Positions 1 to 7,609 of a stretch of DNA of 32,000 nt are shown in pieces. The stretch lies in assembly GCF_001465295.1 (NCBI RefSeq), contig NZ_CP011034.1, positions 2,310,001 to 2,342,000 of the forward strand. The letters run 5' to 3'. This stretch comes from Pseudoalteromonas translucida KMM 520 (GTDB taxonomy: Bacteria; Pseudomonadota; Gammaproteobacteria; Enterobacterales; Alteromonadaceae). How positions within the stretch are numbered: the stretch's first letter is position 1; every line of letters begins with the position of its first letter. The notes beneath the pieces were generated by a model that saw only the letters and a program-made list of their open reading frames with translations, had not been told where the DNA came from and searched no databases. Position numbers and translations under genes: made by a program.

Positions 1-65
1 TTCTAACGCTTAAAAGGTAATTCACCGAAATATGTTTTTTCAAATTGATAAATATGCTCTTAAAT

Positions 66-1250
66 TTATCCAATGTCATATTTTCGATCCTTTGGCTCAA
101 TTTCTTTAAGTCGCTCACTTATTTCGGTGTATTTATCTTTATATAATCTTTTTATAATTCCATTCATATAAACAACTAGGTTAAATCTTTTTTTGTACCA
201 GTATTTCTCCCTATAACTATCAGGGTAGGTTTCGAGCTTTTTAATTATAAAAAAACAATGTTTTATATCAACTGCCGATGGCAATGGCTGAATATCACTT
301 AAAGCGTTTTTAAAGTAGCCGTGTTTTGGATGCTTGACCCTTGCTAGCTTGTGAATGCGACCTAAACATCTATCAAAAGATCTGCGATAACTTCTGCTTT
401 TCCTAAAGTTATTTTCTTGAGCTTTCTTTGTTAATGCATGTACTTCTGCTCTGATTTTTGCAATCTCTTTAGCAGGTAAACGTGGCTGGTCAAACTCAAC
501 TCTAAGCCCGTGTACCATCAAGGGCTTTATCGAGCTATAAGACACCTCTTCTTTTTGCTCATTTATTGGCAAATCTTTTTGCAGAAGCATGTCTTCAATT
601 AATTTTTTTGCAGTGTTGAAATTAAAATTAGAAGCTGTACTAGAAACGGAGATATCATCAATGAACCTAGTATAAGTAAGTCCCTTACGTTCTAATCGTT
701 TAACCAGTAAGTGTTCTAAGTCAAAAAATATTAAGTTAGCTACATAGCTTGAGGTCAATGCGCCTTGAACCAATGTATTTTCAAAGCAACAAACATCACA
801 TATGAAATCGGCTACTTCATTTGAAAGATCTAAAGTATTAACCAAAATATCTTTTATATGCTCTTTATGAATATTATCGAAGAAATCTGATATATCCATT
901 TTTAAAAGGCTTTTTGCTCCACAATGCTTTTCAGCACATTTGATGTGGTCTCTGCTATCCTCAATTCCATTAATTAACTTTGGTATAGAACCGTATACAA
1001 ACTCAGGCCAAATTATTTTAGGCTTGAAAAAGCGGTTATTGATTCTTCTCTGAAATTTTCTGGTCAATTTATTAGGACATAAAACTCTTCTCTTAGAACC
1101 ATCACTTTTATATGCAGATTTAACAGGTTCACGATATCTAGAAGAGCTATTTGAGGATATAAAAGCTTCATAATCATCTTCTAAATCTAGAAAAGATATA
1201 AAGTTTTCAAGCTTTTTAATTGGGTCGCCTCGGTAATACTTAATTTCCAT
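66..1250 (-). CDS. Reverse transcriptase, retron-like or defence-associated (394 aa)
   Basis: RT motifs are visible in the ORF: KMDISDFFDNI (motif A Asp), LVQGALTSSYVANL (motif B), YTRFIDDISVS (catalytic xxDD) and LMVHGLRV. By eye these blocks parallel retron Ec86 RT as recalled from memory (NIDLEDFFPS, LPQGAPSSPKLANL, YTRYADDLT, VTGL). ATG at 1250-1248. A structured non-coding region lies immediately upstream. Confidence 0.8.
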   Translation of the reverse strand: MEIKYYRGDPIKKLENFISFLDLEDDYEAFISSNSSSRYREPVKSAYKSDGSKRRVLCPNKLTRKFQRRINNRFFKPKIIWPEFVYGSIPKLINGIEDSRDHIKCAEKHCGAKSLLKMDISDFFDNIHKEHIKDILVNTLDLSNEVADFICDVCCFENTLVQGALTSSYVANLIFFDLEHLLVKRLERKGLTYTRFIDDISVSSTASNFNFNTAKKLIEDMLLQKDLPINEQKEEVSYSSIKPLMVHGLRVEFDQPRLPAKEIAKIRAEVHALTKKAQENNFRKSRSYRRSFDRCLGRIHKLARVKHPKHGYFKNALSDIQPLPSAVDIKHCFFIIKKLETYPDSYREKYWYKKRFNLVVYMNGIIKRLYKDKYTEISERLKEIEPKDRKYDIG

Positions 1251-1267
1251 ATAATACCATTTTGGTT

Positions 1268-1481
1268 GGATGCCGTACCAAGCATGCGCTTTTATACCGT
1301 TTCTCTAGGCTAAAGGTTAACCATCACATTCTTTAAGTCAAATCTCAGCAACCACTGGTTAAACTTCGGTACGGCTGATCCATAGCTTGCTATTGCCTCC
1401 GCCAGCCGGAGGCGTGGTGGGGCCCTGAGCGTAGATGACATAGTCACCGTTATGTATGTAGCATACATAACACAGCTGAGA
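1268..1481 (-). ncRNA. Candidate RT-associated structured ncRNA (msr/msd-like); boundaries approximate
   Basis: No ORF in the track covers this 353-nt gap. It has a 10-bp stem with a 3-nt loop (1449-1471) and a GC-rich 7-bp hairpin (1395-1413). A long-range imperfect inverted repeat joins 1268-1282 and 1364-1381, with a perfect 8-bp core GCCGTACC/GGTACGGC. An inner 11-bp stem with one mismatch joins 1313-1323 and 1356-1366. A 7-bp inverted repeat joins 1343-1349 and 1475-1481. The GC-rich patch at 1395-1431 sits in an AT-rich context. Confidence 0.4.
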
Positions 1482-1572
1482 ATTTTTAATAACCTTAAAT
1501 GCAGTGAATAAGTGAATCACTTACGCAGATTACAATCTAATTGATAATCGACCATAATTCAACAAATTAAGA

Positions 1573-1592
1573 CAGCTTATTTATCTAAGCTG
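1573..1592 (-). terminator. Weak hairpin just after the tnsC stop (possible attenuator or terminator)
   Basis: CAGCTTA (1573-1579) pairs with TAAGCTG (1586-1592) around a 6-nt loop. On the minus strand it is followed by TCTTAATTTGTT. The stem is AT-rich, so the call is weak. Confidence 0.25.
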
Positions 1593-1603
1593 AATAAGTA
1601 AGG

Positions 1604-2605
1604 TTATTTCCTTAACAACTGACTAATCGGCATCCGGTCAGTAAACTTGGTCGCTATAAACGGGTCTTCATCTTGAGAGCTTTCAGGCTTATAAAGTGAA
1701 TAGCGCTCGACTTCGCTTGCTGTTATTTCTGCTACAGGCAAGGTAAATAAATTAGGAACATCCGGAAAGAGTACCTCAAATGCTTTAACTAAATGCTTGG
1801 TTGTGAGAGTTTTCGCGTTGTCCATTAATGCATAAAGTACGGCATCATCTAAAAAGTATTTTAATGTTCTAAAGCAACCTTTTGATAATGAGAACAAAGT
1901 AAACACTGTTGCTTGCTCACTTAAGTTTGGCTTTTCGGCAAATGGCATACGGTTGGCTAGACCAATTATTAGTTGTACAAAATGCTTTGGGTTTTCTGAC
2001 AACTTAAAATAAGGCAACTGCCGCCTTATTAATAAACGAGATGACCACTGGGGCTCGTCTGCTATTTTTTCTGCCCACGGCATACCTACCAATACAATTG
2101 ATACACCCGCTTCGTCGTTAATATATTTTAATCGATTAGCAATCTCGCGGCGCTTTTTACCTTGGTTGTGCTCAATTAGCTCTTGGAACTCATCAATAAT
2201 TATAAGCTCTGTGCCACATGTTTTTAGGCATTTTATTAATGATGTCGTTAAGCGAGTGCCGTTTATTCGTAGCTTACGCTCTGTGCTGCCTACTTGCCCT
2301 AAATCTTTAAGAAGCTCTGCTAAAGTAGATTCTAATGTCGGGTTACTAGGTATGCGGCTTACCAATACAGGGTGGTTCATAACACCATTAATAAATTGCG
2401 GTAAATGTCGTTCTTTATATTGCTTGATCAGTGCTGTTTTACCTGTGCCTGTATCGCCATTTAAGAGCATGCAAGGCTTTTCACCTGTTAGCCCTTTACC
2501 AAGTCTTAATCTATCGAAGTCGTTAAATATGGTGGTTATTATTGGGTATTCAATAAATACATCACGAAATTCATTCAGCTTTTCTTTTTGTTTATCGGTC
2601 AGCAT
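1604..2605 (-). CDS. tnsC: TnsC/TniB-like AAA+ transposition regulator (333 aa)
   Basis: Walker A is GDTGTGKT and Walker B is LIIIDEFQ. The start ATG lies 2 nt after the tnsB stop. The 333-aa length resembles the short TnsC of I-F3 CASTs rather than the 555-aa Tn7 TnsC. Confidence 0.85.
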   Translation of the reverse strand: MLTDKQKEKLNEFRDVFIEYPIITTIFNDFDRLRLGKGLTGEKPCMLLNGDTGTGKTALIKQYKERHLPQFINGVMNHPVLVSRIPSNPTLESTLAELLKDLGQVGSTERKLRINGTRLTTSLIKCLKTCGTELIIIDEFQELIEHNQGKKRREIANRLKYINDEAGVSIVLVGMPWAEKIADEPQWSSRLLIRRQLPYFKLSENPKHFVQLIIGLANRMPFAEKPNLSEQATVFTLFSLSKGCFRTLKYFLDDAVLYALMDNAKTLTTKHLVKAFEVLFPDVPNLFTLPVAEITASEVERYSLYKPESSQDEDPFIATKFTDRMPISQLLRK

Positions 2606-2607
2606 AA

Positions 2608-4431
2608 TTAAAATCCATCTAAGTCTGAGATAAAATCATCCCAGCTATCAGTTGGTTGCTCTTTAGGTGTAACCTTTTTGGCCTCTACGGGTTTGCTATG
2701 CGTTATTGACTTTTGTGAGTCACTACTGATATTTTGATGTTTAGCTAACGCTTTACCACCCTTTACTTTTGAGTGTTTTGGCGCATTTTTTAACTCTTCA
2801 AACTCGTTTTGAATTTTGTTATGAATAAACATGCGCGCTTTTGCTAAGCCTACATTATCGATAGAGCCCGAAATAAAGTCGCGGTGGATGCGTATATTTA
2901 TTTTATGCTGATTCAAACTTAAATTTTGGGTGTAACCGTTTGGATCTATGCATGGCACTTTTATGTAATGCTCTAGCTTATCAAGGTAAACATATATATA
3001 AGAAATATCATCGGGATTTAATTTAATTAAAACTTCTTGAGATACTTTATGGCTAAATTGCTTTCTATAATTGGCCAGTTCAGTACTGTCGTAGCTTAAG
3101 TTTTCTAGCCGTATCCCACCTTTACGAAGTACCCGATGATTTGAAATACTGAGCACAACATCTAGTTGTTGAAGATCAGCATCACTTAGCATTGTTGGTG
3201 GTAACGTATTAAAACCTTGATCCCACAGTTGACTCGGTATGTACTTAAAGCGACTGTCGGCATCTTGATGATAAACGTCTACTACCCATTTATGAAATAA
3301 CTGCATAAAGGTCGTAAAGCGCATGATTGCATCTTTTTTTGGATTGTATTCATGCTTTTGTAAAATGTTAGAAAAGGTTTTACCGGGAACAGGATCTAAT
3401 AACTCAGTATTTATTGTTCCAAACATACGTTCTACAAATGGTTTTAACCAAGGCTTTGCGACTGGGTTATATTGAGTATTAATGCCTATTTCTTCACAAG
3501 CAAGTTCAAGGCTGTTGCTCCAAAATTCAGCGCCATTATCAACAACGAGTGTTTCAATTTTGCCAGCACACTTCCACTCATTAATCGTATCAGGGTATAG
3601 TTTTGCCACTTCACTTTTAGGTTTCATCGCATTTAGCATTGCTCGCCTTACTGCATCATAGCTAGGCTCACTGAAGCTAAAGTAATAGCCAACAATACAA
3701 TGGCTATACACATCTACCAACATGGTGAGTGTAGGCCTACCTAGTGGAATATGTAGCTCATCATCTAATAAAATAAGATCAAGTGGCGTATGGTCAATTT
3801 CAACTTTTTCAAGTACTCGGATAGGCCGTTTATGCCCTTCAACCTTATTATAAGCAATATCAGCAAGGCGCTTACCATAACGAGCAATCATTACTTCGTA
3901 TTGCGGTAAGTTATCTATTCTGTTTTTAAACGCTTTGTATGTTAAAGGCTTTAAAACACTGTCAACAACACTGTCGTTTTCGATAATAACTAAGTCTTTA
4001 TAGAACTTGTAAGCCGAAGCCACTGATGGTTTTTCTTTTACTAAGTAACGCTCAAGTGCTTTTTCAAAAAACTTATCAGTGGTTGTATCGCGCTCCCTAT
4101 TACCCTTTTTTTGGTGGCTTGGTATTAGCGCCATAATATTTTTATCCGCATTGGTGTAAGCGCTATACCATCGTGCGGCTGTTCTCCAACTTGGCTTTTT
4201 TTCACCCTCAACATCAGGCATTAATTTTAATAAAGGTTCAAGATTTTTTTGTGTCCAACCACCTTGAATATTAGCCTCAAGCCATTGAATATATTTAAGC
4301 TTAGCAAATGTTGTTGTTTTTATTTTTTCAGGAAGGGCTTGTAAGTCTTTAGTGTAATTTTGAGGTAGTTTGGTTTCAGCTTTTGGTAATGGCTGGTTAA
4401 ACTCATCATCAAACAAATCGTTATTAAACAT
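2608..4431 (-). CDS. tnsB: TnsB DDE (rve-family) transposase (607 aa)
   Basis: Candidate DDE triad contexts are IDHTPLDL, VVDNGAEFW and KPFVERMF. It overlaps the tnsA stop by 8 nt. The order tnsA-tnsB-tnsC is canonical. Confidence 0.9.
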   Translation of the reverse strand: MFNNDLFDDEFNQPLPKAETKLPQNYTKDLQALPEKIKTTTFAKLKYIQWLEANIQGGWTQKNLEPLLKLMPDVEGEKKPSWRTAARWYSAYTNADKNIMALIPSHQKKGNRERDTTTDKFFEKALERYLVKEKPSVASAYKFYKDLVIIENDSVVDSVLKPLTYKAFKNRIDNLPQYEVMIARYGKRLADIAYNKVEGHKRPIRVLEKVEIDHTPLDLILLDDELHIPLGRPTLTMLVDVYSHCIVGYYFSFSEPSYDAVRRAMLNAMKPKSEVAKLYPDTINEWKCAGKIETLVVDNGAEFWSNSLELACEEIGINTQYNPVAKPWLKPFVERMFGTINTELLDPVPGKTFSNILQKHEYNPKKDAIMRFTTFMQLFHKWVVDVYHQDADSRFKYIPSQLWDQGFNTLPPTMLSDADLQQLDVVLSISNHRVLRKGGIRLENLSYDSTELANYRKQFSHKVSQEVLIKLNPDDISYIYVYLDKLEHYIKVPCIDPNGYTQNLSLNQHKINIRIHRDFISGSIDNVGLAKARMFIHNKIQNEFEELKNAPKHSKVKGGKALAKHQNISSDSQKSITHSKPVEAKKVTPKEQPTDSWDDFISDLDGF

Positions 4432-5074
4432 TGTTAGACCAAATTGCTGTTTCTATTGATATTTCATTTGTAGTTAAGTCGGCAAATAACTGCCCTAGTG
4501 ATAGTAAGCGAAGCACCGTAGCAAGTAGCTCACCGGCAGTTACTTTTAAATATCTGATTAACTGGCCCACTTTGATAGAGCCGTACTGCTTAACAAGTTC
4601 TAGTACCGATGCTTGCAATTCTGTTAAAGACTGAAAACCAGAGTAGCGATGCAAAAGCTTTAAGTTATTGAGTGTTGGGTATACACGGATTTGTTTATCA
4701 GTAACCAGTATTAAGTCGCGTCCATCTTGCTTAGCTATGGCTTGCTTTTCAATAAAACGTGCACGAAAGTCTTCGTCAGCAATTTTGCTTTGCGGTTTTA
4801 CTTCTATAAATTTTTGCGTGCCGTCTGTGTGGGTAAGTAAAAAGTCAGGTGTGTAACGGCAAATACGGTTATCGAACTCATATTCGTAACCTAGAGGTTG
4901 TGCTTCAAATGCGGCTATTGGTGGTGAAAATTCAAAATGGAAACACGCATCAAACTCTAAAGAGGATTCGACTAAACAAGTAGATTTATTTTTTTGACTA
5001 GCAAATTTATGAAGATTTTTTACACGGGAGTATTTTAGTTTTCTTCTGTACATGTGAGTCAACCATTTAACCAT
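4424..5074 (-). CDS. tnsA: TnsA endonuclease-like transposition protein (216 aa)
   Basis: Type II restriction-endonuclease-like TnsA motifs are present: ESSLEFDACFHFEF, YTPDFLL and IEVKP. It is the first gene inside the transposon end. An alternative ATG at 5053 is possible. Confidence 0.85.
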   Translation of the reverse strand: MVKWLTHMYRRKLKYSRVKNLHKFASQKNKSTCLVESSLEFDACFHFEFSPPIAAFEAQPLGYEYEFDNRICRYTPDFLLTHTDGTQKFIEVKPQSKIADEDFRARFIEKQAIAKQDGRDLILVTDKQIRVYPTLNNLKLLHRYSGFQSLTELQASVLELVKQYGSIKVGQLIRYLKVTAGELLATVLRLLSLGQLFADLTTNEISIETAIWSNNV

Positions 5075-5161
5075 TTGGTTAAATACTAGACTATGCCACC
5101 TTACACTTCCAATTTATGCCATCTTTTAGTACAGATATGTCAACTTATACTTCAAACAACA
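5041..5161 (-). repeat. Transposon right end: TGTTG terminus plus an array of candidate TnsB-binding repeats
   Basis: Read inward on the minus strand: TGTTGTTT GAAGTATAAGTTGACATATC TGTACTAAAAGATGGCATAAATTGGAAG TGTAAGGTGGCATAGTCTAGTA. The motif G(T/C)ATA(A/G) recurs three times. Two of these copies carry the longer ATAA(G/A)TTG, at 5141-5148 and 5110-5117; the third is GCATAG at 5092-5097. GTTGAC-N5-TGTAC occurs twice. The terminus resembles the Tn6677 end TGTTGATACAACCATAAAATG as recalled from memory. Confidence 0.55.
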
Positions 5162-5180
5162 CCCAAATGAGGAATTTGGG
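5162..5180 (-). terminator. Hairpin at the 3' end of ffs (terminator or processing stem)
   Basis: On the minus strand, CCCAAAT-TCCTC-ATTTGGG forms a 7-bp stem, followed directly by TGTTGTTT. That U-rich tail is supplied by the proposed transposon terminus. Confidence 0.45.
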
Positions 5181-5291
5181 TGGCAGTCTTACCAGCCACA
5201 TCTCGGCACACACGTCACAAACTGTGGCTGCTCCCTTCCGGGCCTGACCAGGTTCGCCTGCTAGTGTTGCGAGAGGACCAATAAGACTACC
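5178..5291 (-). ncRNA. ffs: 4.5S RNA / signal recognition particle RNA
   Basis: The minus-strand sequence is GGTAGTCTTATTGGTCCTCTCGCAAC...CCTGGTCAGGCCCGGAAGGGAGCAGCC...GCTGGTAAGACTGCCACCC. It is collinear with E. coli 4.5S RNA, which has CCAGGTCAGGTCCGGAAGGAAGCAGCC and an ACCC tail. Length is 114 nt. The 5' and 3' ends pair as a 10-bp stem. Confidence 0.9.
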
Positions 5292-5319
5292 ATTGAGGGC
5301 CTTGGTTGGCGCGGGAAGG

Positions 5320-5348
5320 ATTATCTCTACTTTTGCTACGTTATTCAA
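5320..5348 (-). promoter_or_regulatory. Candidate sigma70 promoter of ffs
   Basis: On the minus strand there is a TTGAAT -35 (5348-5343), a 17-nt spacer and a GATAAT -10 (5325-5320). The predicted start is about 22 nt upstream of the mature 5' end. That fits the roughly 24-nt RNase P-processed leader known for E. coli 4.5S. Confidence 0.45.
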
Positions 5349-5359
5349 GGGATAATCGA

Positions 5360-5400
5360 AAAAGAAAGTGCGATTGCATACTTCATATACAATCGCGGCC
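5360..5400 (-). terminator. Rho-independent terminator after the DUF3014-like gene
   Basis: The stem GCGATTG (5370-5376) / CAATCGC (5390-5396) has extra flanking pairs. On the minus strand it is followed by ACTTTCTTTTT. Confidence 0.55.
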
Positions 5401-6463: not shown

Positions 6464-7609
6464 ATGAAAATCAAGCAAGTTGATCCTAACAAACCCAAAG
6501 TTGCCCTGCTATTAACAGGGGGTGGCGCACGCGCTGCTTATCAAGTAGGCGTACTTAAAGCATTAGCTCACAGCATGCCTAGAACAGCGCCTCTGCCATT
6601 TAGAGTAATAAATGGTACATCTGCTGGGGCTATAAACTCTGCGGCGCTAGCTTGCTATGCCTCCTGCGCGCACTTAGCAGTGAGAAAACTCGAATCAGTA
6701 TGGAAGAACTTTTCTACATCTATGGTGTATAAAAGTGATTTTTTAAGTGTATTTGGTCATATTACTCGCAATATTTTAACCAGTTTTCAGTCAGAACATA
6801 TAAATCACCCGCCTGCGAGTTTATTAAACAATAGGCCACTGCGTAAATTATTAAACGAAATATTAGATTTACATCGCATTGAACGCAATTTACACCACAA
6901 TTACTTAGAAGCGCTTTCGATTACCGCCTCTAGTTATACTACTGGTGATTCGGTGGCGTTTTATCAATCTAATACACGCCTACCATGGCAACGCGCTAAA
7001 CGTGAGGGCCGCGCTACGCGTATTAATGTTGAGCATTTAATGGCATCGAGCGCCATTCCTATGGTGTTTCCTAGTGTAAATATTTATAACCATTACTTTG
7101 GTGATGGCTCTATACATCAGTTATCGCCTCTAAGCCCATCAATACATTTAGGCGCTGAAAAAATATTTATTATTGGTGTTGAGCAACCTAAAGAGTTACA
7201 CCCTGTGGGTTACTCAGCTCATTACCCTGGGCTGTCTTCGGTTGCAGGGCATTTACTCGACAGCGTGTTTACCGACACTATGCAATCTGACTTAGAACGG
7301 CTTGAGCGAATTAACCGCACCTTAGGCTTGCTGCCAGCTCGCGATAAACACCAAGAACTTAAGCGCATAGAAACCTGCGTGATCAATCCATCACAAAATT
7401 TTAATGCCATTGCTGCGCAGTACTACGACGATATGCCATGGGCAATTAAAGTGTTGCTTAGGATCATAGGGGTTAAAAAACATTCGCAATCGAGTTTAAC
7501 CAGCTACTTATTATTTGAAAAACGTTATACCCAACATTTAATACAAATTGGTTATGAGGATGGCATGAAAAAGCTGCCTGAAATACGTAAGTTTTTAGAG
7601 TTAGATTAG
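6464..7609 (+). CDS. Patatin-like phospholipase family protein (381 aa)
   Basis: It has the oxyanion loop LTGGGARAAYQVG, the nucleophile elbow GTSAGA (GxSxG) and the catalytic Asp motif GDGS. Confidence 0.85.
   Translation: MKIKQVDPNKPKVALLLTGGGARAAYQVGVLKALAHSMPRTAPLPFRVINGTSAGAINSAALACYASCAHLAVRKLESVWKNFSTSMVYKSDFLSVFGHITRNILTSFQSEHINHPPASLLNNRPLRKLLNEILDLHRIERNLHHNYLEALSITASSYTTGDSVAFYQSNTRLPWQRAKREGRATRINVEHLMASSAIPMVFPSVNIYNHYFGDGSIHQLSPLSPSIHLGAEKIFIIGVEQPKELHPVGYSAHYPGLSSVAGHLLDSVFTDTMQSDLERLERINRTLGLLPARDKHQELKRIETCVINPSQNFNAIAAQYYDDMPWAIKVLLRIIGVKKHSQSSLTSYLLFEKRYTQHLIQIGYEDGMKKLPEIRKFLELD

Follow-up and report, generated by a model that had tools for sequence, protein, structure and literature searches.

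Right-hand part of an ffs-homing type I-F3 CRISPR-associated transposon with retron cargo: almost certainly the Pseudoalteromonas translucida KMM 520 element PtrCAST

The element under study occupies positions 1-5161 of the 32,000-nt stretch of DNA analysed here (the window), and its genes all lie on the - strand. Next to ffs, the gene of the 4.5S RNA of the signal recognition particle (SRP), it carries tnsA, tnsB and tnsC, followed leftwards by a 353-nt gap, the reverse transcriptase (RT) gene of a type IV retron and the start of the retron effector gene (Table 1). We conclude that this part of the window is the right-hand portion of a CRISPR-associated transposon (CAST) of type I-F3 and of the ffs-homing I-F3b branch, almost certainly the element of P. 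translucida KMM 520 that has been published as PtrCAST. An ffs-homing I-F3 CAST had already been proposed in the initial annotation of the sequence. The family of the tnsABC genes, the TniQ and Cas8/5 proteins of KMM 520, an ffs-matching spacer in Pseudoalteromonas sp. A601 and the break against empty sites all agree with that proposal.

Table 1. Features of the element and of its attachment site, in window coordinates
Feature	Position	Strand	Basis
Retron two-transmembrane (2TM) effector gene, start only	1-79	-	ATG at 79; 14-nt overlap with the end of the RT gene; runs off the window
Retron type IV (Ec48-like) RT, 394 aa	66-1250	-	PADLOC RT_IV 2.2e-137, residues 7-386; Pfam RVT_1; exact match ALS33552.1 (PTRA_a2462)
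Presumed retron non-coding RNA (ncRNA; msr-msd) region, 353 nt	1251-1603	-	Predicted structure; position upstream of the retron RT
tnsC, 333 aa, short AAA+ adaptor	2605-1604	-	Pfam TniB 1.8e-27, AAA_22; exact match ALS33553.1 (PTRA_a2464)
tnsB, 607 aa, DDE transposase	4431-2608	-	Pfam rve, Mu-transpos_C; exact match ALS33554.1 of KMM 520
tnsA, 216 aa, endonuclease subunit of the heteromeric transposase	5074-4424	-	Pfam Tn7_TnsA-like_N 1.3e-10; PDB PseTnsAB fusion 2e-49
Transposon right end	5092-5161	-	TGTTG at 5161-5157 and three predicted TnsB-binding repeats
Putative target-site duplication, right-hand copy	5162-5166	CCCAA on +, TTGGG on -	Empty sites and relic islands
ffs (4.5S/SRP RNA), attachment-site gene	5187-5283	-	Rfam RF00169, 73.5 bits, E 9e-15, full-length model match
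Predicted ffs protospacer for the homing guide RNA	5214-5245	-	Match to the A601 terminal spacer, 24/32

The three transposase genes are tightly coupled on one strand, as first noted, with an overlap of 8 nt between tnsA and tnsB and a gap of 2 nt between tnsB and tnsC. Among proteins of solved structure, the PseTnsAB fusion comes nearest to TnsB (5e-174), followed by TnsB of Tn6677 (1e-84) and, remotely, by TnsB of Tn7 (3e-21). TnsC matches the 333-aa TnsC in PDB entry 30ga (5e-70), the entry whose TnsAB fusion is named 'PseTnsAB' in 30jv, and VchTnsC of 330 aa (1.4e-27). Since these closest structures are I-F3 proteins of like length, TnsC is of the I-F3 form, and its shortness had rightly been read as typical of that type. 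The window thus holds the contiguous tnsABC set with an AAA+ TnsC of about 330 aa that belongs to I-F3 elements.

The right terminus reads 5'-TGTTGTTTGAAGTATAAGTTGACAT, with its first T at 5161 on the - strand, and the junction with the host is ...CCCAAATTCCTCATTTGGG/TGTTGTTTGAAGTATAAGTTGACAT... (here and below, a slash between sequences marks a boundary). An 18-nt motif, GAAGTATAAGTTGACATA, occurs at 5153-5136, 5132-5115 and 5109-5092 with 0, 5 and 3 mismatches, respectively, so that the predicted TnsB-site repeats are spaced by 21 and 23 bp. At up to 4 mismatches the motif has only two matches in the whole window, both in the right end. The clustered copies have the arrangement expected for the TnsB sites of a Tn7-like right end.

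The position of this end was evaluated on loci of sister strains and samples, chosen via the patatin gene of the window (6464-7609), which is present in identical form in many genomes. Six of them (L014-L019, including the complete chromosome CP011036.1) carry the identical patatin gene and no tns genes, and the gene for acetyl-CoA hydrolase stands directly after ffs. These empty sites read ...AGTTTATACA/CCCAA/ATGAGGAATTTGGGTGGCAG, with ...TATAGCA at the left in L015 and L017, and the corresponding - strand host sequence is TGTATAAACTAATTAC. To the right, starting with 5162, they agree with the window at every base; to the left, starting with 5161, they bear no relation to it, save for 2-3 shared bases (CA or ACA). 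Because all six tns-less loci diverge exactly at 5161/5162, we consider the junction real; a junction conserved in relatives lacking tnsABC, which had been named at the outset as a ground for dropping the proposal, is not found there.

No second transposon end was found in the 32-kb window. The left end was likewise not found in the 1.6 kb past the CRISPR array of A601, nor within 10 kb past tniQ in a more distant relative element, L023 (GCA_001550135.1), and in L024-L026. It can be recognised at four tns-less island loci (L011, L012, L013 and L020), where on the ffs-distal side the host sequence ...ACACCCAA is followed by TGTTGTTTGAAGTATAAG(T/A/G)TGACA; the left end ...CTTATACTTCAAACAACA is TGTTGTTTGAAGTATAAG when read element-inward. 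In all four, CCCAA lies directly outside the left end and again at the ffs side, and by its sequence this boundary of the relic islands is the left end of a CAST, next to the duplicated CCCAA. The left end of L012 contains the 18-nt motif three times, at +9, +64 and +87. Ends starting with 5'-TGTTG and bearing multiple predicted TnsB-binding repeats are therefore seen on the right in the window and on the left in L012. Together, the empty sites and the left-end junctions of the relic islands suggest that the window copy, too, is flanked by a CCCAA duplication.

As had been remarked for the part first in view, there is no tniQ, no cas gene and no CRISPR array; neither these genes nor an I-F repeat occur anywhere in the 32-kb window. 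The window TnsB, TnsC and RT exactly match three P. translucida KMM 520 proteins, ALS33554, ALS33553 and ALS33552. The chromosome record of this strain that carries ALS33548-ALS33554 is 3,390,388 bp long, and gene linkage beyond the window was read from protein accessions and locus tags. By accession order, the retron effector (ALS33551.1, PTRA_a2461) is followed by two genes and then by a TniQ of 391 aa (ALS33548.1, PTRA_a2458) and a Cas8/5 fusion of 683 aa (PTRA_a2457). The cas7 and cas6 genes of KMM 520 were taken from the literature (PMC8464060). The best PDB matches of TniQ and Cas8/5 of KMM 520 are I-F3 TniQ-Cascade structures, namely 7u5d and 30ga, with 9e-70 and 2e-68 for TniQ and 3e-132 and 1e-146 for Cas8/5. 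The tniQ-cas8/5-cas7-cas6 operon of I-F3 elements is thus represented by TniQ and Cas8/5 records in KMM 520 and is complete in A601 and in L023-L026. The supposition that the targeting operon lies to the left of position 1 is borne out by the KMM 520 records, three genes past the retron effector, and by the full operon of A601.

A non-CRISPR Tn7-like transposon, with a TnsD-type selector for the ffs site and unrelated cas genes elsewhere, would also account for a window in which no selector is visible, and TnsD does serve canonical relatives of Tn7 at conserved genes. We regard this explanation as extremely improbable. The KMM 520 TniQ is nearest to the TniQ of I-F3 TniQ-Cascade structures and adjoins Cas8/5 by locus tag, at a distance of three genes from the retron effector. 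The A601 counterparts make up a single block of one orientation together with an ffs-matching spacer, and the similarity of the window TnsB and TnsC to I-F3 proteins far exceeds that to TnsB of Tn7. The possibility of a TnsD-only element, raised at the start, was looked at specifically, and TniQ plus Cas8/5 was found instead of TnsD.

The A601 contig (L003), obtained by scanning genome contigs with the window RT as query, provides the most complete picture of the CAST. Its element is 93% identical to that of the window at the nucleotide level and occupies the same ffs site, with identities of 94.5% for tnsA, 93.4% for tnsB and 91.6% for tnsC. The ffs gene is 100% identical, whereas the host gene past ffs reaches only 77%. 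A601 is therefore a different host species that harbours this element at the shared ffs site. The order in A601 is tnsABC, retron, xre, a Pycsar pair (PycTM and cyclase), tniQ, cas8/5, cas7, cas6 and a four-repeat CRISPR array. Pfam identifies TniQ, a Csy2-like Cas8/5 of 683 aa, Cas7 as Csy3 (1e-65) and Cas6 as Csy4, and all open reading frames (ORFs) of at least 70 aa in the span from tnsC to the array belong to retron, xre, Pycsar, tniQ, cas8/5, cas7 or cas6 functions, none being left in that span for cas1 or cas2-3.

In the A601 array, repeats 1 and 2 are GTGAACTGCCGAGTAGGCAGCTGGAAAT, repeat 3 is a 3-nt variant ending in GAAGTT, and repeat 4 (TTTAACTGCCGAAAAGGCAGAGGGTAAA) has diverged strongly. 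Of the spacers, the last one, AGGCCGGGAAGTAAACAACCACAAATTGTAAC, agrees with window positions 5245-5214 within ffs at 24 of 32 nt (P about 4e-9 per position); the next best match in the window is 19/32. The mismatches fall at spacer positions 6, 12, 13, 15, 18, 24, 25 and 30, five of these eight being every-sixth positions, which type I-F Cascade does not read in the guide. Each of L023-L025 has its own degenerate ffs spacer, also last in the array and matching the same protospacer place, with a typical repeat before it and a diverged final repeat after it. A last spacer matching the attachment gene between atypical repeats, the mark of I-F3b, is accordingly present in the relative A601, and L023-L025 have a comparable terminal ffs spacer.

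The choice of ffs as attachment site agrees with its known use by I-F3 elements (Petassi et al. 2020, bioRxiv 10.1101/2020.07.02.184150), to which the initial annotation had appealed. It is the sole RNA gene found by Rfam, and no tRNAs were found; a permissive Rfam search of 1-5400 gave no retron msr or other RNA besides ffs, a hit to rli22 at E 0.98 being noise. The distance from ffs to the element depends on where the gene is taken to end. The 17 nt given initially hold when the gene is taken to include the 4.5S-like 3' tail ...CUGCCACC(C), which leaves 16-17 nt, but not by the end of the Rfam model at 5187, from which the gap is 25 nt; the mature 3' end probably reaches to about 5178. Between the PAM-distal end of the protospacer at 5214 (PAM, protospacer-adjacent motif) and the start of the element at 5161 lie 52 host bases, the 5-bp CCCAA among them, and the end that faces ffs is the tnsA-proximal (right) one, as had been stated. 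This gap and orientation are the T-RL product expected of I-F3 systems. An insertion about 47-52 bp past the PAM-distal end, with the right end proximal and a 5-bp duplication, is thus what the locus presents, the left junction of the window copy itself being deduced from the related loci.

The insertion point coincides with the foot of a 7-bp hairpin (CCCAAAT/ATTTGGG) past the 3' end of ffs, at window 5162-5180. The 3' half of the hairpin stem consists of the duplicated TTGGG, and the TGTTGTTTG of the element supplies a T-rich tract behind it, so that ffs and its downstream hairpin stay intact. The junction of host and right end differs by one base between the window (...CATTTGGG/TGTTG, window 5162-5164) and A601 (...CATTTGG/TGTTG, L003 6088-6089). 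The difference could stem from independent insertions one base apart or from a 1-bp indel, and it fits the contrast between the identities of the element and of the host gene.

From these features, a course of transposition can be proposed for the ffs-homing CAST. TniQ-Cascade (TniQ, Cas8/5, Cas7 and Cas6), encoded a few kb to the left of the window, would load the CRISPR RNA (crRNA) made from the last spacer of the array, and this crRNA would pair with the 32-nt ffs protospacer at 5245-5214, mismatches being tolerated. TniQ would then recruit the short AAA+ TnsC, which in turn would recruit the cut-and-paste transposase of TnsA and TnsB bound to the end repeats. Insertion would occur at the foot of the downstream hairpin, about 50 bp past the PAM-distal protospacer end; it would turn the right end towards ffs, duplicate the 5-bp CCCAA and leave ffs intact. 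The type IV retron (ncRNA, RT and 2TM effector) sits in a slot for variable defence cargo that separates tnsC from the xre/tniQ-cas module. The first three of these steps, namely loading, pairing and recruitment, have been shown for the family by others, and by analogy they may apply to the window copy.

Several points weigh against the identification with PtrCAST as an ffs-homing element. The window locus is very probably that of PtrCAST because only one KMM 520 TniQ of this family was found among the matches, and the equation hangs on that single protein. The cas7, cas6, array, homing spacer and left end of KMM 520 are derived from protein records, relatives and the published description (PMC8464060). 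The PAM position, 5247-5246, is TC rather than CC, which is compatible with the reported flexibility of the PAM. Finally, the gap of 52 bases, counted for a 32-nt protospacer, stands at the upper edge of the 48-51 bp of PtrCAST and depends on the counting convention.

The gene after tnsC had been recognised as a reverse transcriptase, and we find it to be defence cargo rather than a selector or part of the targeting machinery. The RT belongs to the type IV clade of retrons; the NCBIfam retron models match it below their cut-offs. The adjacent gene is that of a two-transmembrane effector: its continuation in L001 and L003 matches PADLOC 2TM_IV (4e-25), and NCBI names ALS33551.1 of KMM 520 a 'retron Ec48 family effector membrane protein'. 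Between tnsC and the RT gene, the 353 nt presumably hold the retron msr-msd. In their predicted fold, stem-loops cover about 1471-1396 and a long hairpin about 1382-1266, a layout that an msr-msd RNA would be expected to show; the minimum free energy is -81.8 kcal/mol and the z-score only -2.07, and Rfam gave no match on these 353 nt. Covariation has no sequence variation to draw on, because the A601 copy is 100% identical.

The suggestion that the element might use a different selector does not hold: the RT is cargo of retron type IV, and TniQ and Cas8/5 are present. An RT acting in target selection or guide acquisition would suit its place directly after tnsC on the same strand, and RT-Cas1 fusions exist in other CRISPR systems. 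We give such a role hardly any probability. The RT match to the type IV retron model is full-length and is followed by the matching 2TM effector, and the same slot in L023, which begins at the tnsC stop and ends about 80 bp upstream of xre, contains Gabija (an OLD/TOPRIM ATPase and a UvrD helicase) and a 363-aa ORF, with no RT. It is on this retron match, the neighbouring effector and the Gabija of L023 that the assignment as cargo is based. Furthermore, the cassette is 99.7-100% identical to that of A601 where tnsABC differ by 6-8%, as expected of an exchangeable cassette, and PtrCAST works in Escherichia coli with tnsABC, tniQ-cas and crRNA only (PMC8464060). Retrons and Gabija are both among the known cargo of Tn7-like elements (PMC8649781).

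The identity between window 1-1603 and L003 9648-11250, comprising the ncRNA region, the RT and the start of the effector, rises exactly at the tnsC stop. This pattern points to a recent exchange of the retron cassette between diverged CAST backbones. The slot spans 3035-7590 in L023 and 9648-11955 in L003, and homology resumes in a conserved stretch resembling the promoter/operator of xre. That the slot is a dedicated site for the exchange of defence cassettes by a specific mechanism, rather than a product of ordinary homologous recombination on the tnsC and xre flanks, seems to us improbable, and a dedicated mechanism is speculation. No special sites are apparent at the slot borders, where only a terminator-like hairpin past tnsC and the promoter/operator region of xre were seen.

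Beyond the slot, xre and then the Pycsar pair (the PycTM effector followed by a cyclase with an AGS_C domain) stand directly upstream of tniQ on the same strand, at L003 12038-14286 and L023 7673-9930. The Pycsar pair of A601 and L023 thus places a defence system between the tniQ-cas operon and the presumed regulator Xre. In I-F3b elements, the Xre regulator acts on that operon (bioRxiv 10.1101/2020.07.02.184150). KMM 520, with only two genes there by accession count, probably differs from A601 and L023 in this interval upstream of tniQ. The backbones are mosaic: between L023 (189-2030) and A601 (L003 7298-8309), tnsB, of 613 aa in L023, is about 68% identical at the nucleotide level, tnsC 90% and the block from xre to the array, with tniQ-cas, 87%. 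A gene with an Xre/MbcA/ParS-type antitoxin domain follows just past the array in opposite orientations, at L003 19574-20065 (-) and L023 15163-15606 (+), and the A601 gene has no obvious partner toxin gene alongside.

The composition of the element also differs from that of its surroundings, with a G+C content of 0.33-0.38 in 1-5000 against mostly 0.39-0.43 in the host flank (5001-32000). The host gene adjacent to ffs encodes a DUF3014 protein, and the rest of the window consists of conserved housekeeping genes (Na+/H+ exchanger, GGDEF, tilS, accA, dnaE, rnhB, lpxB and others) with nothing unusual.

At the same ffs site, three sister loci that also have the identical patatin gene carry a Shango island (SngA, SngB and SngC by PADLOC), at L011 2099-8700, L013 2166-8700 and L020 2102-8700. 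Their left ends are truncated, and the terminus in L011 is mutated to CGTTG from TGTTG; these islands look like relics of earlier CAST insertions that have lost the right end, tns and cas genes. The island of L012 (3848-8700) has a complete-looking left end with three TnsB-site repeats and three genes that have no PADLOC match, coding for a DUF7830/CoiA-like nuclease of 373 aa and for two further proteins of 842 and 306 aa, and this set is a candidate for an uncharacterised defence system. Its ffs-proximal 310 bp are 92% common with the Shango islands, in which the nuclease gene is truncated. The ffs-proximal terminus of the islands, TGTTACAAATTT..., was considered as a second type of right end and rejected, as it has no repeated TnsB-site motif; the shared 310 bp were considered as well and are the upstream region and the 5' part of the CoiA-like nuclease gene.

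The window copy might itself be an immobile relic, having lost an end or its guide like the tns-less islands of the sister strains. Decayed left ends such as that of L011 do occur at this site, and the left end and array of the window copy lie out of view. Yet the four ORFs in the window are intact and tightly coupled, the right terminus is intact with three TnsB sites, and TniQ and Cas8/5 of KMM 520 are full length. Moreover, the KMM 520 genes, repeats and both ends gave efficient transposition in E. coli (PMC8464060). We therefore consider a relic very unlikely, and retain the reading of the window as part of an I-F3b CAST. The ffs site in the P. translucida/nigrifaciens group is a hotspot of turnover, being empty, occupied by an intact CAST or filled with tns-less defence islands that keep the CAST left end.

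Both the homing of I-F3b CASTs to ffs (2020) and the use of the KMM 520 system as a genome-engineering tool (2021) are already known, and the discovery value of the present analysis is small. Its additions are descriptive: the native context of PtrCAST at ffs, the junction at 5161/5162, the CCCAA duplication, the TnsB sites of the right end, the retron IV cargo and the picture of turnover at the ffs site. According to Yang et al. (Nucleic Acids Res 2021, PMC8464060), PtrCAST of KMM520 transposes efficiently under RNA guidance in E. coli. Its distance from the target is 48 bp in most insertions and 51 bp in some, the RL orientation is preferred, the PAM preference is weak and mismatches are tolerated. 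Its two natural repeats give crRNAs ending in GAAAU and AAGUU (PMC8464060), the same endings as in the A601 array. With the same strain, class and components (tnsABC, tniQ, cas5/8, cas7 and cas6), it has no demonstrable difference from the window element at the component level. Neither the ffs site nor retron cargo is mentioned in the main text of that paper (0 occurrences of either term).

The structures 7u5d and 7u5e, which show TniQ-Cascade of the Tn6900-type I-F3b element from Aeromonas salmonicida S44, provide the best or second-best structural relatives of TniQ and Cas8/5. That element shares with the relatives described here the ffs site, a homing spacer placed last in the array and mismatched partly at every sixth position (10 mismatches in S44, 8 in A601), an atypical repeat after it and an xre gene upstream of tniQ-cas. 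The present element differs in belonging to Alteromonadales rather than Aeromonadales, in its cargo and in a TniQ that matches at only about 240 bits over 390 aa. In I-F3b elements at large, homing to ffs relies on an attachment-specific spacer that is always last in a single array with atypical repeats on either side, and guide mismatches, partly at every sixth position, still permit transposition (bioRxiv 10.1101/2020.07.02.184150).

Tn7016/PseCAST of Pseudoalteromonas sp. S983 (30ga, 30jv, 9gs9 and 9t7l) gives the best PDB match for TnsA, TnsB, TnsC and Cas8 and has the same genus and the same TnsC length of 333 aa, but with TnsB at 584 bits over 580 aa, far from identity, it is a distinct lineage. 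A partial TnsB of S983 falls into the same 90% cluster as the window TnsB, and this sequence suggests that S983 also carries an element of the lineage of the window. Tn6677/VchCAST of Vibrio cholerae, of the I-F3a branch, has the same machinery and a short TnsC of 330 aa, with matches of 1e-84 for TnsB, 1e-27 for TnsC and 1e-30 for TniQ. The I-F3a branch uses guaC/yciA sites and another strategy of guide privatisation (bioRxiv 10.1101/2020.07.02.184150), and Tn6677/VchCAST has been reported to be orthogonal to PtrCAST (PMC8464060).

Prototypic Tn7 shares the TnsA/B/C core and clustered TnsB sites in the right end; it likewise duplicates 5 bp of its target and inserts downstream of a conserved gene, the right end being the proximal one. 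Tn7 relies on the protein selectors TnsD and TnsE and has a TnsC of 555 aa. Unlike Tn7, to whose TnsB there is only the distant match of 3e-21, the element of the window has TniQ-Cascade plus crRNA as its selector; instead of a TnsD-type selector, TnsE and a long TnsC without cas genes, we find a TnsC of 333 aa and a TniQ beside cas8/5.

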